From positions 5,598 through 69,597 of the forward strand of contig ONJX01000018.1 in the NCBI GenBank assembly GCA_900318255.1: a DNA stretch of 64,000 nt, given 5' to 3'. The position numbers were made by a program, and so were the translations under genes. This DNA comes from an uncultured Prevotellaceae bacterium (GTDB lineage: Bacteria > Bacteroidota > Bacteroidia > Bacteroidales > Muribaculaceae). Below, one piece after another: positions 2,477 to 15,595 of this stretch. The notes beneath the pieces are model-generated. The model worked only from the letters and a program-made list of their open reading frames with translations. It did not search any database and was not told the DNA's origin. Position 1 is the stretch's first letter, and the number at the start of each line of letters is the position of its first letter.

Positions 2477-3181
2477 TTATTCTAATGTCCATCCATGGTC
2501 GCCATGATAAATCATCAGGCGTGTCATGCCGCCATCAATGCAGATGTTCTCGCCTGTGATGAAACCGGCCTTGCTGGAACAGAGATAGAGCACCATGCAG
2601 GCAATGTCCATGGGATTGCCAACACGACCCACTGGCTGCTGGGTGGCGTCGGGACCTTCATACACGGTGCTGGCGGTATCAATCCATCCAGGAGAGATAG
2701 AGTTGACACGAACCTTACCAGCCAGGCTGACAGCCATAGCATGGGTCAGAGAGGCAATACCACCCTTGGCGGCAGTGTAGCTCTCAGTTTGAGGTTGACT
2801 CATGCGGTCGCGCGAAGACGAAATATTCACGATGGCAGCACCCTCGTCGAAGTGAGGCAGAAAGAGTTTTGTGAGGTAAAACGGAGCGGTCACGCCCACA
2901 CTCATAGCATACTGGAAATCCTCATAACTGCATTCATCAATACCCTTCATCAGCGGCAGGGCATTATTGATAAGAAAATCCAGGTGGCCGTGCTTCTCTA
3001 TCACTTCTTTGGCAAATCGCTCCAACACTTGTTTGTCGGCAAGGTCGCCCACAAAGTGGTTGCCCGGCTGCTTGTCAATCACACAAACCGTGGCTCCTGC
3101 CTTCAGGAACTCATCGGCGATGCACCTGCCTATACCTTGTGCGCCACCCGTCACGACTACTACTTTTTTCTTGAAATCCAT
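2477..3181 (-). CDS. SDR-family oxidoreductase
   Basis: TGGAQGIG Rossmann motif, NNA, YTAAK catalytic motif, VNSISPG. Confidence 0.92.
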   Translation of the reverse strand: MDFKKKVVVVTGGAQGIGRCIADEFLKAGATVCVIDKQPGNHFVGDLADKQVLERFAKEVIEKHGHLDFLINNALPLMKGIDECSYEDFQYAMSVGVTAPFYLTKLFLPHFDEGAAIVNISSSRDRMSQPQTESYTAAKGGIASLTHAMAVSLAGKVRVNSISPGWIDTASTVYEGPDATQQPVGRVGNPMDIACMVLYLCSSKAGFITGENICIDGGMTRLMIYHGDHGWTLE

Positions 3182-3208
3182 AATTGATTCAATTTGCTTA
3201 AATGGAAT

Positions 3209-3529
3209 TTACTTCTTTCTCTTTTGCTTGGGTTCAGGGAGAACCTTGCATGTTTCAATGACCAACTTAGAAAGATAGTCATGGTCATCTACATCTGCTA
3301 TGTAGAAATACTGCTTTGCGCCCTCATAGGGCGGACGCAATTCTTCCGTTCTGAGCAATGGACGTACTGCCTCAGTAGGTTTCAGATAGAAACAGTCATC
3401 ACAGATTAGACCAAATATCTTTCCATTGCAATAGATTCCATAGTCCCCAAACATTTTCTTGGCTACTATATCACCAGCTCCCGAACATTGGTCAACAATA
3501 TATTGCACAAAGTCCTTACTACTTGCCAT
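3209..3529 (-). CDS. TfoX/Sxy N-terminal domain protein
   Basis: KKMFGDYGIYCNGKIFGLICDDCFYLK is typical of TfoX_N. Confidence 0.85.
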   Translation of the reverse strand: MASSKDFVQYIVDQCSGAGDIVAKKMFGDYGIYCNGKIFGLICDDCFYLKPTEAVRPLLRTEELRPPYEGAKQYFYIADVDDHDYLSKLVIETCKVLPEPKQKRKK

Positions 3530-3541
3530 ATAAAATCCGAT

Positions 3542-3694
3542 TTATTCTTTTGTGAATTTATAAACTGCCAGGGTTGGCAACACGACCATAAGCATTAGCG
3601 TAATCTCCACTAAGGCGTATGAACCAAAATAGTCAACCAGTGTCTTGAAGTCATTCAGCATCGTTTTGAGGACGGTAATCTTTACTATCTTCAT
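3542..3694 (-). CDS. Small ORF (50 aa) with hydrophobic C-terminus; possibly a remnant
   Basis: Manual translation MKIVKITVLKTMLNDFKTLVDYFGSYALVEITLMLMVVLPTLAVYKFTKE, in line with neighbouring minus-strand genes. Confidence 0.4.
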   Translation of the reverse strand: MKIVKITVLKTMLNDFKTLVDYFGSYALVEITLMLMVVLPTLAVYKFTKE

Positions 3695-3798
3695 ATATCT
3701 CTGTTCCTATTTGTTTTGTTGCTAAATTGGAATTTACTGACTGACAGAGGTTAACCTGTAAATACATTATCTTAACTTTTTTTGAATTTGTCCTGCTA

Positions 3799-4320
3799 TC
3801 AGATATTTCGTGAATTTTTTACTCTCTCATTCAAAATTTCGCACAATTCCTTCGGTTTAATCGTCAGGCCTTCTGCGGGAAGTGCTTCTTGTGAACCAGC
3901 CACACTCTTGTTGAAGCGGCGAACGGCACGCCCAGCCTTGCTAGCATCTTCAAATTTGTGCAACTCTACGTTTTCTTTGTATTGTATGCCAATCAACTTT
4001 GTCTTTCCCCTTTCTGTTCCCACTTTCGTGAGATAGAAGCGTTCTACATCAGCAAAGTGAACTTCATAAGTCTTTAAACCACTATTCATAATGATTCTAT
4101 CATCCGTAATCATATAATATGGTGTGTGGGTTATTCTTTCTTTCAATATGAGAAATAACATGAAAAGTCCACCTCCGCCAAAGAATAAGATGCCAGCCCA
4201 TACAATGAATGATTGTTCTCCATGCAGAAGCATGAAAATTCCCATTGCAACAACCCCAAAACATACAGCCATTAAGGCTATGTTTTTCCAAATTGAATGA
4301 TATATTCTGATATCTTCCAT
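3799..4320 (-). CDS. Membrane protein with two N-terminal TM helices (STM3941-like)
   Basis: Start placed at MEDIRIY because the TACCTTTG box lies at 4351-4358; two hydrophobic helices then a soluble domain. Confidence 0.65.
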   Translation of the reverse strand: MEDIRIYHSIWKNIALMAVCFGVVAMGIFMLLHGEQSFIVWAGILFFGGGGLFMLFLILKERITHTPYYMITDDRIIMNSGLKTYEVHFADVERFYLTKVGTERGKTKLIGIQYKENVELHKFEDASKAGRAVRRFNKSVAGSQEALPAEGLTIKPKELCEILNERVKNSRNI

Positions 4321-4350
4321 AAATTCCAATTTATCGTTCAAATTATGCCA

Positions 4351-4392
4351 CAAAGGTAGGCATTTTTTCCGCTACCTGCGCTTATTTCTTGG
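4351..4392 (-). promoter_or_regulatory. Bacteroidetes promoter block, duplicated at 8633-8673
   Basis: Plus strand CAAAGGTAGGCATTTTT(T)CCGCTACCTGCGCTTATTTCTTGG occurs twice; contains TACCTTTG (TAnnTTTG -7 box) on the minus strand. Confidence 0.75.
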
Positions 4393-4648
4393 AGATTTGT
4401 TATTCATCAGCCTTTGGTAATCATCTTGAGGTTGGTGAGCTATCGCTTTCCTCCTCCTTGCAAGGCATAGTGCAAGTGAGCTTGCCTCTGTATTAGGCTT
4501 ACGCAATATTTCACGTAGGGCATTGTTGTCACGAACCATGACCAATGGGGTTTGTAAAAAAAGAGCTCATACGGTTGCCAGAAACAAAAAAATGTTTACC
4601 TTTGTGGACGAAAACTGTGCATTTGCACAAAAAACAATCACAACAAAT

Positions 4649-5911
4649 ATGGAAATACAACGTAACATCCATTTAAACAGGCTAATAAGTCGTCGCCACA
4701 ATGGAATGATAAAGGTGGTAACAGGTTTGCGTCGTTGTGGCAAATCTTATTTGCTTTTTAAATTGTTTGACAGGTACTTACGTAATGAAGGTGTTGATGA
4801 CAAACACATAATCAAAATTAATTTGGAAGACCGCCGAAACATGGCATTGCGTGACCCAGACAATCTGTTGGCGCACATTGACAGCAAATTGCAAGATGAC
4901 CAAATACACTACATTCTGCTCGATGAGGTGCAGTTTGTCAGTGAATTTGAGGACGTTCTCAACAGTTACTTGCAAGTGCCCAACGCCGATGTATATGTCA
5001 CCGGCTCAAACGCCAAGTTCCTGTCAAAAGATGTGATCACCGAGTTCCGCGGTCGTGGTGACGAGGTACGCATCCATCCATTGTCGTTCGGTGAATTTAT
5101 GAACGTGCGCGATGGCATGAGTAAAGCTGAGGCACTCAATGAATATGTGACCTATGGCGGCTTGCCTCAAGTAGTTCTCATTGACTCTGTGCAAGATAAA
5201 CGGAAATACCTGCAAAACCTGTTTCGACACACCTATTTAAGCGATATTCGCGAGTGGCATCAAATCAGGAATGATGATGATTTGGAGGAGTTGGTCAACA
5301 TCATCGCTTCGTCTATTGGAGGATTGATAAATCCTCAAAAAATCATGAACACATTTCACTCGGTGAAGCATAGCGACATTGGCAGAAACACTATCAAGCG
5401 TTATCTAGAATACCTTGAAGATGCGTTCCTGATTGAGAAAGCATTGCGTTACAACATAAAGGGCAAAAAGTACATCGACACTCCAGCAAAGTATTACTTT
5501 GACGACATGGGGTTACGCAATGCCCGGTTAAACTTTAGGCAGACCGAACCGACTCATTTGTTTGAGAATGCAGTATATAACGAGTTGAGACTGCGTGGTT
5601 ATTCGGTGGACGTAGGTCAAGTAACCAGATATGTGACTGGCGATGACGGCAAACGCGAGCGTCGCAATCTCGAAGTAGATTTTGTGTGCAATGAGGGATA
5701 CAAGCGGAGCTATATTCAAGTCGCTTATCGTTTGCCAGATGAGGAGAAGCGCGACCAAGAGTTAAACTCGTTACGTAATATCAACGACAGCTTCCAAAAG
5801 GTGGTGATTGTAGGTGACAATTATCCTAAATATCAAAATGATAAAGGGGTATTGTTCATTAGTATTTACGACTTCTTGCTCAACGAAAACAGCTTGAATG
5901 ACAATAATTGA
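4649..5911 (+). CDS. AAA_14 ATPase with DUF4143 C-terminal domain
   Basis: Walker A GLRRCGKS, Walker B LLDEVQ, TGSN, YYFDDMGLRN, EVDFV..IQV; start set at MEIQR after TACCTTTG at 4597. Confidence 0.9.
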   Translation: MEIQRNIHLNRLISRRHNGMIKVVTGLRRCGKSYLLFKLFDRYLRNEGVDDKHIIKINLEDRRNMALRDPDNLLAHIDSKLQDDQIHYILLDEVQFVSEFEDVLNSYLQVPNADVYVTGSNAKFLSKDVITEFRGRGDEVRIHPLSFGEFMNVRDGMSKAEALNEYVTYGGLPQVVLIDSVQDKRKYLQNLFRHTYLSDIREWHQIRNDDDLEELVNIIASSIGGLINPQKIMNTFHSVKHSDIGRNTIKRYLEYLEDAFLIEKALRYNIKGKKYIDTPAKYYFDDMGLRNARLNFRQTEPTHLFENAVYNELRLRGYSVDVGQVTRYVTGDDGKRERRNLEVDFVCNEGYKRSYIQVAYRLPDEEKRDQELNSLRNINDSFQKVVIVGDNYPKYQNDKGVLFISIYDFLLNENSLNDNN

Positions 5912-6027: not shown

Positions 6028-6465
6028 TCAGTTATTGTCTATTTTGGTGTCTTTCTTAAAACGAGCGATTTCCTCTTTGGAATCGGTCTTATACCAAACC
6101 ATTTCATTCTTTGTGAGTCGGTGGATGTCACACTCAATATAAATTTTGGTCTGACCATCATGTTCCTTGCCGGTAAAGATGTTCATGTGTGCTGTTTCTC
6201 CAACTCGGTAATGAAGGTCGGTAACCGTCCATCCTTCATCGGGCCAATTTGATTCATAAAGCTCAATTCGCCCAGAATAAGACGTTTCAGGATAGAACAC
6301 ATATTTAACGACACTCGCGTCTTGTATCCTACTAGCGAACACTTGTGTCCAAATGCCCTCAAGTCTGCTTGAGTCAAAACTCTTGACATCCTCGTCGCCG
6401 CATGATGTTGCGGCAAGAAGTGTGATAGACAAAAAGATGAAACTAAGCCACTTAAATTTTCTCAT
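6028..6465 (-). CDS. Hypothetical lipoprotein (lipocalin-like)
   Basis: Lipobox AATSC followed by the LEGIW motif common to lipocalin-like Bacteroidetes lipoproteins. Confidence 0.7.
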   Translation of the reverse strand: MRKFKWLSFIFLSITLLAATSCGDEDVKSFDSSRLEGIWTQVFASRIQDASVVKYVFYPETSYSGRIELYESNWPDEGWTVTDLHYRVGETAHMNIFTGKEHDGQTKIYIECDIHRLTKNEMVWYKTDSKEEIARFKKDTKIDNN

Positions 6466-6515
6466 AACTTAAAGATATTATTGAATACTTGTAAATCCCG
6501 ATTTATCTGTTTTTG

Positions 6516-7199
6516 TTAATCAGCTTTGAAGATAATATGCATATAGTTTCCATTTTCATAACCGAAGCGCTGCACGAGCGTGGAACCGTCGTAGATAGCT
6601 TCCAGTTGCAGTTTTATGCCGTTTTCAACAAGTGAGCAGAACGCTTTCGGCTGTTTCAGTTCGTCCTCCGTAAACTTGTAATACTGGCTGTTGTTATTAA
6701 ACTCTATGCGGATGTGATGATCAACACCATCGTAGTTCAAGTTTAGCAGCATGACATTGGGGATGAAAGCCCATTTCACATGAGAATAGTCAGTGTCGTA
6801 GTCGAAGCCATAGCGGGCAGTGATAGCCTGCTGAGTAGACTCGGCAAGTGCATGGCTGAGTCCTTCGTCAGTAACCACCTTTGAAATCAGAGATATGGGG
6901 AAGTCTTGAAAGAAAACATGCAGCATATTGTTGTCAGACACATCAACCTGTACGCCATTGAAGGTTTCACTATGGGCTACCGTTATAGGTCGACCTGCCT
7001 CGTCAGTCCCTTCGACACAATCTTTGTTTTTGTAGGTAATGATATACAGGCCAGGATATTCACCCGAAATGTTCTGCGCATAGGCTTCCTTTTGCTTGCT
7101 CGTCAATTGCTTCACAACATCGTCTTCGCTGCTACAAGATGCGAGGAAGAAAACTGAGAACAATAGCGATATAAATCCTAAAAACTTTAATTTTCTCAT
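6516..7199 (-). CDS. Lipoprotein, DUF4840-like
   Basis: FLASC lipobox; SGEYPG..FPISLISK..ALA..YGFD pattern. Confidence 0.6.
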   Translation of the reverse strand: MRKLKFLGFISLLFSVFFLASCSSEDDVVKQLTSKQKEAYAQNISGEYPGLYIITYKNKDCVEGTDEAGRPITVAHSETFNGVQVDVSDNNMLHVFFQDFPISLISKVVTDEGLSHALAESTQQAITARYGFDYDTDYSHVKWAFIPNVMLLNLNYDGVDHHIRIEFNNNSQYYKFTEDELKQPKAFCSLVENGIKLQLEAIYDGSTLVQRFGYENGNYMHIIFKAD

Positions 7200-7265: not shown

Positions 7266-8600
7266 CTACTTTTCAAACTTAACAAACATGTCTCGGAAGT
7301 TGATTATGGTTTTCCTGTGCTGAAGAACGGCGGCAATACCTATATTGCCATGACAATGTTCGTCAGCCAGCGTGCTTTCTTCGTCAACAACGGCCTCAAC
7401 AAGTTGAATCGGCATGTTGCCTATGGAAAGACTAAATGGCCGGATGACTTTCATTTCCCTTGCCCCGGCATTTCCATAGCCACCACCTGAGATTGTGTCG
7501 GTTGTGGCAATTTTATCTATAATTTCACGATGAGAGTTGTAATAAGCAGCATAGAGATAGCAGGCATTATTGCTTGCGTTGCCAGTGTCGAAGAGGAATC
7601 TGAGGCTTTCATCACCTGCAGTCGCTTCCACGTGTGAGTTGTATAGCATGTTACGACCAAAAGCTGGCAGTGGCGATGTTTTGAAAGGGAACAGCATGGT
7701 GCTGTCGTCCATGCAAATTTGTGTTTCGCCGATGGCTGATATGACATCACGGCCTAATATGGGTCCGACTCCTACCAAGTCAAGAAGTTCGCTCTCCTCC
7801 TCCAACCCTACGCCCGCTATGATGTTGCGGACGGTTATCTCGCCTATTTGCAGACTGTCGATGAACGTGCGCAACCCTTTGGAGTTTCCCGTATAGACCA
7901 CGGTGTCGCCAATAAGTGGCAAGCCCTTCTCCCTGACGAACTTCTCGGTGACAAAAGTCATTCCTGCTCCTGTGTCAAAATGGAAAGGTATGGTTTCGCC
8001 ATGAAGCGTTACAGGAATACTCATCAATACCGATTTGGCATCGGGATTTCTTTCATCTTTCTTTCTCATCCACGATTCAATCCGCTTAGGCTTCAGTTCA
8101 TTCATGGCGAATGGAACTGAGACATCATGATTGGGACGCAACAGACTCAGTGCAGGCAACTCACGAAGAGCATTTACATGCTGATAATAATAGCCCATGG
8201 CGTCCAACCCTTGTGTCACGCCTTGCCCTTTCAGCTGGTCAAGAACGTTTTTTATGAAATCGGCCGCTTCGGCATACCTTCCCATCTCTTCCAGCAACTG
8301 AGCACGCAGAATGATGAAATTAAATATTCCTGCCCCTAGGTCTGACTGGTGATTAGACAGCAATTCATTTAGGCATTCCAGCGCACGCTCTTTTTGGTTG
8401 AAGTTACGGGCAATCATAGCCTCGGCCACCACCTTCAAAAAAGGCACCTGAATCGAATCCTTTAATATTGGGTACTCTTTCTCAAGTTCAAACCAATCTT
8501 CAGTATTGATAAGTTCACCAATACGCTGATCAGGTTGCTGAGCCGAAATCGTCCGAAAAGACAACAGCGACAGCAGGATTATAATAATAATTCTTGACAT
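7266..8600 (-). CDS. Secreted retropepsin-like aspartyl protease (two-domain)
   Basis: Signal peptide, TPR-like helical region, two FDTG catalytic motifs (FHFDTGA, FLFDTGN). Confidence 0.85.
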   Translation of the reverse strand: MSRIIIIILLSLLSFRTISAQQPDQRIGELINTEDWFELEKEYPILKDSIQVPFLKVVAEAMIARNFNQKERALECLNELLSNHQSDLGAGIFNFIILRAQLLEEMGRYAEAADFIKNVLDQLKGQGVTQGLDAMGYYYQHVNALRELPALSLLRPNHDVSVPFAMNELKPKRIESWMRKKDERNPDAKSVLMSIPVTLHGETIPFHFDTGAGMTFVTEKFVREKGLPLIGDTVVYTGNSKGLRTFIDSLQIGEITVRNIIAGVGLEEESELLDLVGVGPILGRDVISAIGETQICMDDSTMLFPFKTSPLPAFGRNMLYNSHVEATAGDESLRFLFDTGNASNNACYLYAAYYNSHREIIDKIATTDTISGGGYGNAGAREMKVIRPFSLSIGNMPIQLVEAVVDEESTLADEHCHGNIGIAAVLQHRKTIINFRDMFVKFEK

Positions 8601-8632
8601 ATAAAATCTGATTTATCGTTCTAATAACACAG

Positions 8633-8673
8633 CAAAGGTAGGCATTTTTCCGCTACCTGCGCTTATTTCTTGG
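8633..8673 (-). promoter_or_regulatory. Second copy of the promoter block at 4351-4392
   Basis: Near-identical 41-42 bp sequence upstream of the aspartyl protease gene. Confidence 0.75.
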
Positions 8674-8713
8674 GACTATTTTTAATAATCATCGTATGCC
8701 TGTTTTCCTCATT

Positions 8714-8971
8714 TCAAGCGTGCAGGGGCATGGCGATGTTCACGTGCTCCACGTTGTCCGCTCCCTGCTCCACGCTCTCCACCAGGCGGAGTTGCGACAG
8801 TATCGCCTTCCAGTTCTCGAAAATCTGCTGCTCGGTGCTGCTTGACGCACTGGTGAGCAAGTCAGTGATGTCGTGAAGGAGTGCCCCCACCGTCTCGGGC
8901 GAGATCGACTCCTTCTCCGTCTCCACACAGAATGCGGAGATAAGTTGAGTCAGTTGTGTTGTGTCAATCAT
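8714..8971 (-). pseudogene. Truncated 5' end of a prophage tail/structural gene
   Basis: MIDTTQLTQLISAF.VETEKESISPETVGALL resembles the N-terminus of long Bacteroidales prophage tail proteins; ends abruptly after 85 aa; GC-rich relative to its neighbours. Confidence 0.6.
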
Positions 8972-8989
8972 AAGAAAAAAGTTTTGGAT

Positions 8990-9057
8990 AAATCAGGCTG
9001 CGTCTCGGAAAAGCTCAAGTAAACTTGGCTTTTCACTCAACTTGCACTGATTTTGCG
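8990..9057 (+). repeat. Dispersed intergenic repeat of the family targeted by the IS110
   Basis: ATAAATCAGGCTGCGTCTCGGAAAAGCTC..TTGCACTGATTTTG aligns with the reconstructed IS110 empty site ATAAATTAGGCTGCACCTCGGCATA..TTGCACTAATTTTTG; the same 3' end recurs near 24690-24706. Confidence 0.6.
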
Positions 9058-9166
9058 GTTTTCTGTCGCAAAACTACACTCAAAGTTTGGTTGACGAAAA
9101 GACACAAAAAATAGTTAATTAAACTTATAAAATAAGGTGTCATAATAGTAATCACAATTTTTTGCT

Positions 9167-9174
9167 TATTTTTG
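9167..9174 (+). promoter_or_regulatory. -7 promoter box for the retron operon
   Basis: TATTTTTG matches TAnnTTTG about 30 nt upstream of the ncRNA. Confidence 0.55.
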
Positions 9175-9205
9175 TAAAAAATTGTATTTAATCAATTTTA
9201 ATATT

Positions 9206-9345
9206 GAGCGACAAGAAATAAATTTCAAGCTTTGATTCGGATTTTCCGAATTAGTTTACTGGTATCGGTAAATAGAAATTAATGTATCAAAGTGTACCAA
9301 TCAAACCTTTCAAGGAAAGCAAATTATTTTATTTCTTTGTCGCTC
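9206..9345 (+). ncRNA. Putative retron msr-msd RNA
   Basis: Terminal inverted repeats GAGCGACAAGAAATAAA (9206-9222) and TTTATTTCTTTGTCGCTC (9328-9345, one bulged T); internal hairpins TTCGGA-TTT-TCCGAA, TTTACTG-GTAT-CGGTAAA, CTTTC-AAG-GAAAG; ends 14 nt before the RT ATG. Confidence 0.8.
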
Positions 9346-9359
9346 TTTTTTCTTAAAAA

Positions 9360-10694
9360 ATGAAAAGAAAACAGATGAGTCGTGACGAATATTTTTTCGT
9401 CAAAAATAATAAAGAAAATATCAAAGACCTCCAAATGTTAGCTGACATCTTGGAAGCTATAAATAAGGGCTATTTCCATTATGAATTGCCAATAACGTTG
9501 GATGAAATTAAAGAAATAGCCTCAGATAGAAATAATTCTTATTACAGAATATTCTCAATAAAAAAAAGAAATGGAAATAAACGTCAAATATCAGCTCCAA
9601 ACAATAGACTTAAAGAAATACAAAACTGTATAAGAATTTTACTAACAAGTGTCAATCATAGAGGTAAATCTATAATTGATTATGCGAAACCTCATGTGGG
9701 AAAAGATATTGTTTATAATATGGATATCAAGGATTTTTATCCGTCCATTAATGCTTCACAAATAATTCCAGTCTTTTTTTCTAAATTTAAAAACTATGAA
9801 GTAGCATTGCTTTTAACTTCGCTTGTAACGATGCGCTCAAAATCTGGAATTCCAGTCCTTCCACAAGGGGCACCTTCTTCACCAGCTATTTCAGAATTAG
9901 TTTTAAAGAATCTTGATAGAAAATTATCAGGTTATTCAGAACGACATGGTTTTCAGTACTCAAGATATGTTGATGATATAACATTCAGTTGCTCAAGAAC
10001 TCAGAAATGGATAACATTCGCAGCAGTATTTAATATGATTATTAATTCTGAAGGATTTCAGATAAACAAAAAGAAAAGCCGTGTCTCATTTTATTATCAA
10101 AGACAAGAAGTAGCAGGATTAACGGTTAATGAGCAACTGAATGTTACTAATAAATATATTAAACAACTTCGCACCATTCTCCACAATTGGGAGAAAGATG
10201 GATATGTATTAGCTAGCAACAAATTCTTGATGCACTATTATAAAAATATGACTAATGCAAAAGATTTTATTCCAAAAATGGAACATATAGTAGCTGGCAA
10301 ATTATCTTATTTGAAAATGGTGCGTAGCTATAAACGAAAAAAAAATAGTGAGATTCCGCATCCAGAATTTGATTTTTTTGAAGCTATTGGAATTTCATAT
10401 ACAAAACCTGACGAAAATGAATATACAATAATAAAAACCTCAGATCCTGTTTGGGAAAAATTGCATGATAGATATGTTGCTTTACGAGTTCGTGATTTTA
10501 ACATTATAAATGGCTATGAAGATGACCTGAAATTACAAAAATGCGTCTATCGATATGGCGATGACGCTGGTCCGCTAGTATATGCTGTTAGGAATGATGA
10601 TTCAGAGCAATGGAGAATAATAAAAATCTATAGAAACGGAGTTTGGCGAAATGGTGATGAGGAAGAAGCATATAGACTAAGATATGGTTGTTAA
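9360..10694 (+). CDS. Retron-type reverse transcriptase with an unassigned C-terminal extension
   Basis: KKRNGNKRQISAP, DIKDFYPSI, LPQGAPSSP, YSRYVDD, INKKK and VAGLTVN (VTG-like) motifs; YAKPH in place of NAxxH; AT-rich compared with the host genes. Confidence 0.9.
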   Translation: MKRKQMSRDEYFFVKNNKENIKDLQMLADILEAINKGYFHYELPITLDEIKEIASDRNNSYYRIFSIKKRNGNKRQISAPNNRLKEIQNCIRILLTSVNHRGKSIIDYAKPHVGKDIVYNMDIKDFYPSINASQIIPVFFSKFKNYEVALLLTSLVTMRSKSGIPVLPQGAPSSPAISELVLKNLDRKLSGYSERHGFQYSRYVDDITFSCSRTQKWITFAAVFNMIINSEGFQINKKKSRVSFYYQRQEVAGLTVNEQLNVTNKYIKQLRTILHNWEKDGYVLASNKFLMHYYKNMTNAKDFIPKMEHIVAGKLSYLKMVRSYKRKKNSEIPHPEFDFFEAIGISYTKPDENEYTIIKTSDPVWEKLHDRYVALRVRDFNIINGYEDDLKLQKCVYRYGDDAGPLVYAVRNDDSEQWRIIKIYRNGVWRNGDEEEAYRLRYGC

Positions 10695-10703
10695 ATCATA
10701 TTA

Positions 10704-11005
10704 TCACAAGTGATTTTGGGCGAAATTCTTCTTGTTCAGCGCGTTAGAAATAATCCCCAGGAATTGTAGTCCCAAGTTCTCCTCATAGAACTCCTTGATA
10801 TTCATGACTGAGGCGTAGTATTTGGTGCTGAACCACTTACGTCGTTGGCGTTTTTTTTGCTCGCCAATCTCTTGAATGCATAACCTTAAATTGAAATCGC
10901 GCTCCTCTACTGTCTTGGACCTGCTCATTATCAGCAAATTATTCGTCCATGAAATTTGTATCACCAGTGGTGAGAGTATTTCGCTGGTATTGGGATATGT
11001 CTCAA
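10704..11005 (-). pseudogene. Chimera of a YhcG/DUF1016 N-terminal fragment and the C-terminus of a prophage gene
   Basis: ETYPNTSEILSPLVIQISWTNNLLIMSRSKTVEERDFNLRLCIQE resembles YhcG; IGEQKKRQRRKWFSTKYYASVMNIKEFY resembles a Bacteroidales prophage protein tail. Confidence 0.6.
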
Positions 11006-11025
11006 AGGGTTATATAAAGCAAAAC

Positions 11026-11057
11026 GGTACACTCCAGCCGTAGCCGGAATGTGCCGT
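11026..11057 (-). terminator. Intrinsic terminator-like hairpin
   Basis: ACGGTACACTCC..GGAATGTGCCGT with an adjacent A/T tract. Confidence 0.55.
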
Positions 11058-11217
11058 AATGTATGGAGCGGAAGCGACCGAGTCGCCACCGAATTTGTCA
11101 ATTAAATTACGAGCGAAATTCTTGTGTTTCTGAGGGGTAATAACACGCTGATTATCTGCAACTTACTAAAGTTGCATAAACCATTATCACATTGAATGGC
11201 ATGTTGACAATCGCGCA

Positions 11218-11562
11218 TCATAAAACATTAAGATAGTTCTCAACTTGTTGTTTAAGAATTGGCAAGTCATTAACATAAGTGTCCCAGACAAATTTAGGAC
11301 TGGCGATATAGTAACCATGAACTAACACGTGGCGCATGTCAATAATGTCGCGCCATGGGGTGTCTTGGTTTTCATCACGAAATTCTTTGGTCAGCATATT
11401 TGCCGCCTCTCCTATAATCATGATGTTATAGACAACAGCATGAAAGCACATTCTGTTGTTTGTCATATCTTCAAACGTTTTTCCATCCAAAAACTGGAAA
11501 ACATTGTCAATACACTCAAGAATGTGTTGAAGTCTGTCCTTATCTTTAGATTGCTCTCTCAT
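11218..11562 (-). CDS. HEPN/HepT (DUF86) ribonuclease toxin
   Basis: IIGEAA..PWRDIIDMRHVLVHGY contains the RX4HXY HEPN motif. Confidence 0.92.
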   Translation of the reverse strand: MREQSKDKDRLQHILECIDNVFQFLDGKTFEDMTNNRMCFHAVVYNIMIIGEAANMLTKEFRDENQDTPWRDIIDMRHVLVHGYYIASPKFVWDTYVNDLPILKQQVENYLNVL

Positions 11563-11857
11563 AGATTAATTGTCTATCGTAGTTTGCTTCCTCAGCAATC
11601 AGTGGACGCATGGTGCCGTCTTCAACAAGATCAACATCTCGACCAAGCTTCTCCTTTAACTCTCTCCACATTCGGGCGTAAGCTAAAAGTCCGATTGCCG
11701 TACTATGGTCAAATTCAACAAGGATATCTACATCACTGTCGGGGGTCTCCTCGCCACGAGCGAAAGATCCAAACAGCCATGCTTTCAAGACAGGTTGTGT
11801 CTTGAAATACTCGGCGATTGTCGTTTTGATGTCTTGCGTACTCATGATTAATAGCAC
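11546..11857 (-). CDS. Minimal nucleotidyltransferase (MNT) antitoxin
   Basis: LFGSFARGEETPDSDVDILV (GSX10DXD); overlaps the HEPN gene. Confidence 0.92.
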   Translation of the reverse strand: MLLIMSTQDIKTTIAEYFKTQPVLKAWLFGSFARGEETPDSDVDILVEFDHSTAIGLLAYARMWRELKEKLGRDVDLVEDGTMRPLIAEEANYDRQLIYERAI

Positions 11858-12143: not shown

Positions 12144-12692
12144 TCATTCGTTATCTTGCAAACTTTCTAAATCAAAATACAGTAGTCTTGTCGCTGCATC
12201 TTCATCTTCTTTGGTCAAGGGCATAAATCCCATCTTATAGTAAAACGACAAGGCGCCAGCATAGGCATCAACTGTTATAAAACGGCATCCAGCCTTGTTG
12301 TCGTTCTTGTACGAACCAACTATCATATTGACAATCATTGCGCCAATTCCTTCACCGTGGCAACTTACACTTGTTGCCAAACGGCAAATCTTCAATGCGG
12401 GATAGCTTTTGAACATTTTGCCTTGTGCAAAGAATTGTTTACGGAATCGATTGTAGGCCGAGTTGCTGGGGAAGTCAGTCAATGAAATACGATCATGGGC
12501 AAGACTGAAATAGCCGTAAACCTCACCGCTGACTTTATCCTCCAGCACATAACTGGTGGCAAGGCGCACTTTAAAGTACAAAGGAGCATCTGTGAGGATG
12601 AAGTCGTTGAGGTCTTCATCTCCACAATCAAAATGGGAAACAGTATCTGTTTCTCCAAGACGGCGCAACTGTATAGCGTCCTTGTCAATCAT
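12144..12692 (-). CDS. GNAT acetyltransferase of the AtaT/TacT toxin type
   Basis: FDCGDEDLNDF, GYFSL, YPALKICRLA, GIGAMIV and GCRFITVDAY..ALSFYYKMGF are characteristic of tRNA-acetylating toxins. Confidence 0.85.
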   Translation of the reverse strand: MIDKDAIQLRRLGETDTVSHFDCGDEDLNDFILTDAPLYFKVRLATSYVLEDKVSGEVYGYFSLAHDRISLTDFPSNSAYNRFRKQFFAQGKMFKSYPALKICRLATSVSCHGEGIGAMIVNMIVGSYKNDNKAGCRFITVDAYAGALSFYYKMGFMPLTKEDEDAATRLLYFDLESLQDNE

Positions 12693-12854
12693 TTAGAATG
12701 AGCAATTGACGCAACGATTACGCATAAACTCATAGTCATGACGGATACGAGTGCTTCTCTCTTTGCTCACCGGCTTGGGCTTCTGCATCCGCATTTCGAA
12801 CTTCTTAGCCTCCTCACCAAAGAGAATAGGTGTTTCTTTAATCGGTCTTGCCAT
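12693..12854 (-). CDS. 53-aa putative antitoxin for the GNAT toxin
   Basis: Not in the ORF track. MARPIKETPILFGEEAKKFEMRMQKPKPVSKERSTRIRHDYEFMRNRCVNCSF; its stop abuts the GNAT ATG; promoter box upstream near 12886. Confidence 0.7.
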   Translation of the reverse strand: MARPIKETPILFGEEAKKFEMRMQKPKPVSKERSTRIRHDYEFMRNRCVNCSF

Positions 12855-15013: not shown

Positions 15014-15595
15014 TTAATATTGGAAAAACATGGCTCCCGGTGCGTCGGGATTCTTGATTCGGCGGACGATGATTTCGCCGCTGTGCATAGGGTAGGCCAA
15101 CTTGGGTGTGCAACCCACGGCCAAGATAATCACCTTCACGTTGTCGCTCTCGATGTAGACATACTTCAAGTTCCAGTTCTTGCTCAAATCCACGGTGTCA
15201 AGTTTACTTTCTCCTAACCACAGTTTCTCAAGGTTGGGGAACAAAGCGAGGTCTTCGTAGGTCGACACCTCAAACATGTCTGTGCGGTACTGCGTGAGGA
15301 TGAGTGACTTAACAGAATCGGCCTCAACCCTTGAGATGTGGCCGTCGCCATCGGTGTCGCCTTTGAGCAGTGCGCGCCGCTCAATGTTGCGGTCGGCAAA
15401 AGTGAGACTTTGCGCACCGGCTTTGAAGGCGAAAAAGGCACATAGGGAAATAATGAAAATAATCAAGACCACTATCCAACCTTTACGGCCCGGCTTTGTG
15501 TCCTCCATCATTTCCAGGTTATTCCTGAGCTGTTCAAGCTCCTGGATCTGCTTAATTTGCTGCTGATTGAGTTCTTCGTCCATAACATTAGTCAT
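15014..15595 (-). CDS. Membrane-anchored protein with an EF-hand-like loop and LRR-like segment
   Basis: One TM helix, DTDGDGHISRVE, FPNLEKLWL..LDTVDLSKN. Confidence 0.65.
   Translation of the reverse strand: MTNVMDEELNQQQIKQIQELEQLRNNLEMMEDTKPGRKGWIVVLIIFIISLCAFFAFKAGAQSLTFADRNIERRALLKGDTDGDGHISRVEADSVKSLILTQYRTDMFEVSTYEDLALFPNLEKLWLGESKLDTVDLSKNWNLKYVYIESDNVKVIILAVGCTPKLAYPMHSGEIIVRRIKNPDAPGAMFFQY

Follow-up and report, generated by a model that had tools for sequence, protein, structure and literature searches.

What sustains a retron when no effector gene lies beside it? This question is raised by a locus in a 64-kb stretch of a rumen Bacteroidales/Prevotellaceae chromosome (the window; coordinates are window positions), where a reverse transcriptase (RT) gene is directly preceded by a structured noncoding RNA (ncRNA). 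Retron defense is usually explained by multicopy single-stranded DNA (msDNA) that holds back a linked toxin. The original prediction for this locus had proposed a retron that either carries a new small effector fused to its RT or stands alone as the cargo of a prophage. In our analysis, the retron and its stand-alone state held up, the prophage did not, and a fused effector appears unlikely. With moderate confidence, we read the locus as a functional two-component retron, composed of an msr/msd RNA and an RT, that belongs to a protease-less, type XI-like (RT clade 8) lineage of Bacteroidota and resides on a low-GC cassette of approximately 1.73 kb, inserted where a 5-nucleotide (nt) spacer separates two genes of a conserved but decaying operon, with no linked effector.

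The reverse transcriptase belongs with the retron enzymes

The RT carries a YVDD motif at positions 9966 to 9977, and PADLOC, a PDB sequence search, and Foldseek all returned retron RTs as its best matches, in agreement with the predicted identity. RVT_1 was the sole Pfam family found (amino acids [aa] 67 to 255; E = 3.9e-20). The top PADLOC models were all retron RTs, namely, RT-Protease_XI (248 bits), RT-TIR_XII (237 bits), RT_XIII (221 bits), and RT-Toprim_I-C (217 bits), with alignments confined to approximately aa 43 to 328 and to the RT part of each profile; the retron profiles cease to align at about aa 325 to 337. Scores for retron hidden Markov models ranged from 135 to 248 bits, versus 64 bits for group II introns and 33 to 60 bits for defense-associated RTs (DRTs), while the NCBIfam retron models scored about 200 bits, far under their own family cutoffs. 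The Ec67 and Ec86 RTs were the best matches in the PDB sequence search (E of approximately 2e-31). Using an AlphaFold2 model of the RT (mean predicted local distance difference test score [pLDDT], 85.5), Foldseek ranked the Eco2, Ec86, Eco7, Ec78, and Ec83 retron RTs above group II, Abi, and DRT enzymes.

The atypical region X reported earlier is present in the form Y108-A-K-P-H112, and V251-A-G253 replaces VTG in the window copy. Since A109, H112, V251, and G253 never vary within the family, whose other members have NAxxH and VTG, the retron motif positions are kept, and two residues of the window protein deviate.

A search of 5.8 billion proteins delineated a tight family of approximately 25 clusters with 48% to 97% identity, below which lies a broad set of Bacteroidales RTs with 35% to 44% identity and highly variable lengths. 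The nearest genomes are rumen metagenome-assembled genomes, labeled uncultured Bacteroidales bacterium and uncultured Prevotellaceae bacterium, and the sequencing runs containing the RT sequence are bovine and sheep gut metagenomes. The RT core, with a ratio of nonsynonymous to synonymous substitution rates (dN/dS) of 0.12 to 0.15, is under purifying selection. Metagenome and metatranscriptome data entered this study as assembled contigs only. Contigs from sheep gut metatranscriptomes cover segments of the RT at at least 99% identity, and one variant's contig spans the msd, the a2 arm, and the start of the RT; as these are assembled contigs and DNA carry-over is possible, this evidence of expression is weak.

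A covarying RNA lies directly upstream

The predicted 140-nt RNA with 17-bp closing repeats and internal hairpins was reproduced. In the window, the a1 and a2 arms form 17 pairs with one bulge and enclose 140 nt (9206 to 9345). The minimum free energy of this RNA is -41.7 kcal/mol, versus -22.6 ± 3.5 kcal/mol for dinucleotide shuffles (z = -5.4), with none of 200 shuffles folding as well. Two of its internal hairpins are strong, and one or two further hairpins, located in the variable part, are weak.

Stronger evidence came from comparing 10 nonredundant homologous loci, all of which have the same RNA directly 5' of the RT. Its core is nearly invariant (..CAAGCTTTGATTCGG..CCGAAT..AGTTTACTGGTATCGGTAAA..CAAGGAAAGC), and the sequences of a1 and a2 diverge between loci with their complementarity kept. 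RNAalifold predicted 38 pairs for these loci, half of which (19/38) show compensatory changes. By direct count, 94% of the cells in the alignment are paired, versus 38% to 51% after sliding the partners by 1 to 3 columns, and the observed covariation was matched by none of 500 shuffles. The a1/a2 helix, which comprises 18 pairs in the alignment, contributes strongly, with 17 of these pairs changing on both sides. By comparison, hairpin 1 of the msr has two pairs with compensatory changes and hairpin 2 shows zero variation; as the msr hairpins and the GCUUU/AAAGC stem hardly vary, covariation says little about them.

The region between the msr hairpins and the AAAGC strand, which forms a longer hairpin in some loci (L004 and L095), is probably the msd template. 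By likeness to the AGC context of Ec86, G9229 is a candidate for the priming G. A scan of positions 8500 to 11500 against Rfam gave zero RNA family matches, and our covariance model of the ncRNA found no credible match among 80 loci of distant RT relatives (33% to 44% identity), so the ncRNA is specific to a narrow RT subfamily.

The promoter box proposed for this transcript, TATTTTTG, also stands. TAnnTTTG is the -7 promoter consensus of Bacteroidota; it occurs once in positions 9001 to 10700 and recurs at the same relative position, 41 to 68 nt 5' of the invariant AAGCTTTGAT, in 9 of the 10 loci, compared with a background frequency of 0.375 per kb across the window.

Upstream of the promoter box, the window, L006, and L001 share a conserved stretch (9110 to 9137; ATAGTTAATTAAACTTATAAAATAAGG). 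No open reading frame (ORF) is kept there, and the stretch may be a promoter-upstream or cassette-end element. A candidate hidden leader ORF in the same area (40 aa, hydrophobic, 9033 to 9155, minus strand) was rejected, as its intactness is lost in L006 and L001.

No effector gene recurs beside the retron

As predicted, the RT has no co-oriented partner: its upstream neighbor, gene X, is divergent, and the downstream ORF (10704 to 10964) is convergent. The neighbors of the related RTs differ from locus to locus. They include a 117-aa ORF of unknown function in L001; a Bro-N protein and, three genes away (+3), a WYL gene in L004; a divergent WYL gene (-1) and an HATPase_c gene in L088; CHAT and caspase-like genes in L089; transposase-like fragments in L091; DUF6939 in L094; DUF4254 in L095; and ORFs of unknown function in L096. 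The only recurring neighbor is the WYL regulator, found in 2 of the 10 loci, and the two WYL proteins are the sole related pair among all these neighbors. None of the 10 loci disclosed an always-present separate effector, and the window contains no homologues of the neighbors from related loci, WYL included. Because none of these neighbors is conserved across the loci or represented by a homologue in the window, the absence of a cognate linked effector is a trait of the family rather than a loss in the window genome.

Two sets of window genes were considered as partners and rejected. The AAA_14/DUF4143 ATPase (4523 to 5911) is unrelated to the copy in L004 and follows no pattern across loci, and the HepT/MntA and GNAT toxin-antitoxin pairs occur in none of the related loci.

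Table 1. Features of the retron locus and its surroundings in the window
Feature	Position	Strand	Remarks
Retron cassette (promoter region, ncRNA, RT)	8973-10699	+	About 1.73 kb; limits from empty-site contig and GC profile
-7 promoter box TATTTTTG	9167-9174	+	Fits TAnnTTTG
a1 arm	9206-9222	+	Inverted repeat with a2
Candidate branching (priming) G	9229	+	In AAGC, 7 nt 3' of a1; invariant in 10/10 loci
Inner stem GCUUU/AAAGC	9229-9233/9316-9320	+	Invariant; closes hairpins 1 and 2 plus variable region
Two msr hairpins	9234-9252, 9254-9273	+	Nearly invariant in family
Variable, weakly structured region	9274-9315	+	Length and sequence differ between loci
a2 arm	9328-9345	+	Followed by T-run; RT start 14 nt downstream
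Retron RT ORF	9360-10694	+	444 aa; N-terminal extension aa 1-55; core aa 56-323 (9525-10328)
Subclade insert	10329-10439	+	aa 324-360; only in closest relatives, absent from P0012-P0025; pLDDT 54-62
Conserved helix DPVWEKLHDRYVALRVRD	10440-10508	+	aa ~361-383, modeled 363-383; includes DPVWEKLHDRY
Orphan C-terminal module	10509-10691	+	aa 384-444; low-confidence linker, structured from aa ~393
Gene X	8714-8971	-	85 aa; divergent; part of host locus, not of retron; common to L006, L001, L097; no Pfam/PHROG match
Gene Y stub	10704-10850	-	About 48 C-terminal codons; convergent with RT; L006 homology ends at 10850
Toxin-antitoxin pairs	11218-11857 and 12144-12854	-	HepT-like RNase with MNT nucleotidyltransferase; GNAT acetyltransferase toxin with small upstream partner
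YhcG/DUF1016 PDDEXK nuclease	17577-18656		Separates operon pieces
IS110-family transposase (DEDD_Tnp_IS110 + Transposase_20)	20331-21428	-	About 10 kb from retron

The C-terminal extension carries an orphan module

The RT protein continues for 121 aa after KLSYLKMVRS, which ends at aa 323, and the layout described earlier for this extension (an insert, a helix, and a terminal stretch without assignment) was recovered, with 61 aa in the stretch that matches no family. Nearly all of the 23 family members have helix DPVWEKLHDRYVALRVRD, even where the terminal module is lacking. The module itself has the motif YRYGDDxGPLV...W.IIK...W.NG.E.AY.LRY and is modeled as strands at aa 393 to 398, 406 to 411, 419 to 425, and 428 to 431, followed by a helix at aa 434 to 442 (pLDDT, 78 to 93), with the same fold obtained when the region was predicted alone.

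No effector family matched the 121 aa. A profile built from the module, run on 1.84 billion representative proteins, retrieved only RT family members or their fragments and two repeat-protein artifacts; the PDB held no sequence relative, and Foldseek gave no match better than an E value of 0.6 in PDB or 0.18 in BFVD. A toxin lead, DUF4258 at aa 382 to 425, was rejected, with 14.6 to 15.8 bits versus a cutoff of 25 (E = 0.02 to 0.04), matches in 2 of 11 members, and no Foldseek support.

The module is present in 12 of the 23 aligned family proteins, and the other 11 stop before it. In L001/L007, L004, L095, and L096, the DNA itself lacks the module. In L088 (7144 to 7303 of that locus), it is interrupted by an in-frame stop (Y*YGDD) followed by a frameshift, and in L089 (7187 to 7345), a frameshift falls just before an otherwise intact module; these disruptions could be real decay or assembly errors. 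A search for the module as a separate ORF in the short relatives gave only the broken remnants in L088 and L089 and nothing elsewhere. Where the module is kept, its dN/dS is 0.19 to 0.49.

These results bear on the suggestion that the locus encodes a one-protein retron, in which the module of approximately 55 aa, possibly together with the preceding helix, is a toxic or sensing output restrained by msDNA, like Toprim in Eco2/Ec67. The RT does group with the clade that fuses effectors C-terminally (protease in type XI, TIR in type XII, Toprim in type I-C), no other effector is present, and the module is confidently modeled, has a dN/dS below 0.5, and is conserved between members that are 48% to 50% identical overall. 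However, it is small, its invariant residues (D, G, P, V, W, I, W, E, and A) are mostly structural apart from one D and one E, and it resembles no toxin or enzyme fold. Roughly half of the family has lost it or carries it in disrupted form, with RT and ncRNA intact, and it is therefore unlikely to be an obligatory effector. That the RT and its orphan module make up a complete one-protein immune system, smaller than Eco2 and with a new output or sensor domain under msDNA control, is thus unlikely in our judgment, and the earlier proposal of a new small fused effector is weakened by the module's lack of fold relatives, its size, its restriction to the family, its absence from four lineages, and its disruption in two (L088 and L089). 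We instead read the helix and the beta module as a lineage-specific accessory part, useful but dispensable and not a toxin, which most likely holds nucleic acid, another protein, or an RT subunit.

Two resemblances within the protein were also seen. The module hairpin YRYGDD...W (10545 to 10562, aa 396 to 401) resembles the catalytic motif-C hairpin SRYVDD...W (9960 to 9977, aa 201 to 206); a duplication of palm motif C was not significant by hhalign (probability, 10%; P = 0.003) and was kept as a lead only. A short internal nucleotide repeat (10420 to 10440 and 10609 to 10629) is translated as EYTIIKT within the insert and as QWRIIKI within the module, and the model shows each of them as a beta strand.

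The retron is a polymorphic insertion in a decaying operon

The GC content is approximately 30% across positions 9000 to 10700, versus 42% to 50% in the flanks. In metagenome run X1, one contig fuses position 8972 to position 10700, omitting 1,727 nt and restoring the order Y stop, 5 nt, X start. This empty site, together with flank depths several-fold above the cassette depth in runs X1 and X6, identifies the retron as an insertion of 1.73 kb for which the population is polymorphic.

What surrounds the cassette is a host locus. Gene Y, reduced to a stub in the window, spans its full 146 aa in L006 and belongs to no Pfam family; its 3,585 homologues are spread across Bacteroidales, the best 120 at 74% to 90% identity. 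The rest of the 86-aa downstream ORF, up to 10964, is unrelated sequence. We had considered this ORF as a YhcG/DUF1016 remnant and rejected that candidate, as BLASTP against the intact copy in the window was blank and the ORF proved to be the gene Y stub. Homologues of X and Y are adjacent to each other elsewhere. In L097 (1 to 2914), Y stands at the end of an operon that also comprises a 122-aa gene, DUF6712, a 255-aa gene, and a 166-aa gene and that adjoins genes for DUF4932, flavin reductase, RmuC, and PriA, a synteny common to L006. Pieces of this operon remain in the window on the minus strand (19067 to 18749, 16590 to 16041, 13158 to 13057, and 10871 to 10710), separated by the YhcG nuclease gene, genes of unknown function, the GNAT toxin and its antitoxin, HepT/MntA, and the retron. 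The operon around the retron is clearly decaying. Taken as a whole, the window neighborhood consists of toxin-antitoxin pairs, the YhcG nuclease, the IS110 transposase, and housekeeping genes.

Such a setting could also accommodate a decayed retron, once tripartite, that has lost its effector and left an ncRNA-RT remnant in a degrading locus. The decay of the operon, with Y reduced to a stub and several genes missing, would agree with this, as would the stops and frameshifts in the C-terminal module of some relatives and the WYL neighbors of L088 and L004, which have no counterpart in the window. Against it, the RT ORF is unbroken and has every catalytic motif, its core is under the purifying selection described above, the RNA shows compensatory changes across 10 loci of which none has a conserved effector, and WYL proteins are regulators rather than effectors. 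We consider decay quite unlikely as an explanation of the locus.

The prophage cargo slot of the original prediction fared no better. If the retron were the moron of an integrated phage, the flanking stubs would be phage structural genes. X, Y, the DUF6712 gene, and the other neighbors were unmatched in PHROG, with the exception of one marginal match of 15014 to 15592 to a family of unknown function (E = 1.3e-4); Y had no match in 50,697 phage genomes, no relatives of the RT were found in IMG/VR viral contigs, and Pfam scans of the larger ORFs in approximately the first 37 kb of the window revealed no integrase, terminase, portal, or capsid. Instead, in both L097 and L006, the flanks correspond to a conserved Bacteroidales operon beside RmuC, PriA, and flavin reductase. 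The points that speak for a phage, besides the marginal PHROG match, are a conservation of Y and its operon across Bacteroidales families that is unusually high, as that of a spreading element would be, and an S-AdoMet lyase-like gene near the L001 retron. Gene Y also has an IDTGALLAS-like motif, which is reminiscent of tail-completion proteins. A phage origin is very unlikely on balance.

Some features of the insertion sites deserve separate mention. The 7-nt sequence AATCATA is found at both cassette junctions (8966 to 8972 and 10694 to 10700) and may be a target duplication, microhomology, or a chance occurrence in AT-rich sequence. In L001, the retron lies between 130-nt direct repeats (92% identity; 7341 to 7470 and 9224 to 9353 of that locus) of an interrupted host gene, and in L091, it lies between 300-nt direct repeats (96% identity; 4124 to 4423 and 6328 to 6627), likewise of an interrupted host gene. 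Relative to genes X and Y, the retron is in opposite orientations in the window and L001. The direct repeats and the flipped orientation hint that insertion or recombination has occurred repeatedly at a hot spot. The cargo of the Y-X junction varies by genome: L097 has the DUF4932 gene there (3001 to 4101), the window and L006 have the retron, and an X1 variant has nothing, which suggests that this junction is a hot spot for cargo.

That the ncRNA-RT unit persists mainly by moving between sites rather than by defense is the least probable explanation and a highly unlikely one: filled and empty sites coexist in the population, approximately eight different contexts occur among the 10 loci, and the orientations beside X/Y and the repeats just described are suggestive, but the cassette contains no integrase, transposase, or terminal inverted repeat, the 7-nt repeat is AT rich and may be due to chance, defense genes are generally patchy and found in hot spots, and, to our knowledge, there is no established mechanism for retron self-mobility.

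A working model for a two-component retron

Considering these data, we propose the following model for the stand-alone, two-component retron. From the TAnnTTTG promoter, msr, msd, and RT would be transcribed as a single RNA, whose two invariant msr hairpins would be bound by the RT. The covarying a1/a2 duplex would set the invariant G9229 beside the 3' end of the variable msd, allowing the RT to prime from the 2'-OH of this residue and to copy the msd into a short msDNA. Any antiphage output would then have to be supplied either by the RT-msDNA complex on its own or by a partner encoded elsewhere.

Several points weigh against this reading. The production of msDNA by this RT family is so far a prediction. 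Region X is YAKPH and not NAxxH, and VTG has become VAG in the window copy. Helix 2 of the RNA, which holds the candidate priming G, is invariant and so uninformative for covariation, and the window copy has a short msd part with weak structure, in contrast to classical retrons, whose msd stems are long. The search for an effector spans one 64-kb window, and an unlinked effector may exist. The contigs taken as signs of expression may contain contaminating DNA. Because a dN/dS below 0.5 indicates purifying selection on the module where it is kept, the module does something. Finally, membership in the TXI_C2like lineage (Toro 2026), discussed below, was set by matching descriptions, which the locus fits, and not by shared phylogeny.

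RNA-RT pairs kept under selection without a linked toxin challenge the picture in which msDNA restrains a toxin. The locus is a convenient test case, since it is compact and well delimited (1.7 kb) and has natural variants with and without the C-terminal module. It could serve to ask whether type XI-like retrons of Bacteroidota make msDNA, what role such retrons have without an effector, and how retron cassettes travel from one site to another. Moreover, a retron this short, native to gut and rumen Bacteroidales and free of an effector, could be useful for producing DNA in those hosts.

Comparison with known retrons

The closest description is that of the TXI_C2like lineage, which was defined computationally in a bioRxiv preprint of May 2026. 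According to the preprint, this lineage comprises 126 loci, found in Bacteroidota only, that lack the protease and have a variable C-terminal extension, with an upstream ncRNA bearing three stem-loops between a1 and a2; WYL neighbors, within two genes on either side, occur in 37% of its loci, 39 loci have none, and the WYL proteins are regarded as regulators, not effectors (10.64898/2026.05.14.725207). The window locus shares the Bacteroidota host, an RT that scores best with type XI but lacks the protease, a C terminus that varies within the family, an upstream ncRNA with a1/a2 and about three stem-loops, and WYL genes beside some relatives. It differs in that the window has no WYL gene, a feature that is not obligatory for the lineage, and its subfamily has an RNA of its own and an orphan beta module that is not described in the accessible preprint text.

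The original definition of type XI joins an RT of clade 8 to a protease and recognizes no ncRNA (Mestre et al. 2020, PMC7736814); some ncRNAs of clade 8/type XI were validated afterward in an experimental census (PMC10849725). With canonical type XI, which joins the RT to a trypsin-like protease, the window locus has in common its top RT profile (248 bits), a single-gene architecture, and RT clade 8. Unlike those systems, it has no protease match in Pfam, and its PADLOC alignment covers only profile positions 18 to 307 of 510; furthermore, the ncRNA, unidentifiable for type XI in the study by Mestre et al. (PMC7736814), is clear in the window.

Retron-Eco2/Ec67 (type I-C, RT-Toprim; PDB 9i2f and 9lm3) is the closest solved relative (E = 2e-31; Foldseek E = 4e-18) and, likewise, a minimal single-protein retron. 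The window RT lacks Toprim, reaches 200 bits with the NCBIfam Ec67 model versus a cutoff of 450, and aligns with PADLOC positions 23 to 298 of 529, and its C-terminal 121 aa have no nuclease features. Type XII (RT-TIR) is similar in its RT core, whose 237 bits are nearly at the type XI level, but the window protein has no TIR domain, scores 205 bits with NCBIfam versus a cutoff of 600, and aligns with PADLOC positions 31 to 319 of 475.

A precedent for lineages made of ncRNA and RT only is provided by the Ec107-like retrons (clade 2), for which the preprint reports no recurrent accessory genes (10.64898/2026.05.14.725207). These differ from the window retron in RT clade (175 versus 248 bits for type XI), host range, and ncRNA. 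To these known systems, the window locus adds a narrow subfamily with its own RNA, an orphan module together with its repeated loss, and the boundaries of the cassette on which the retron is carried.

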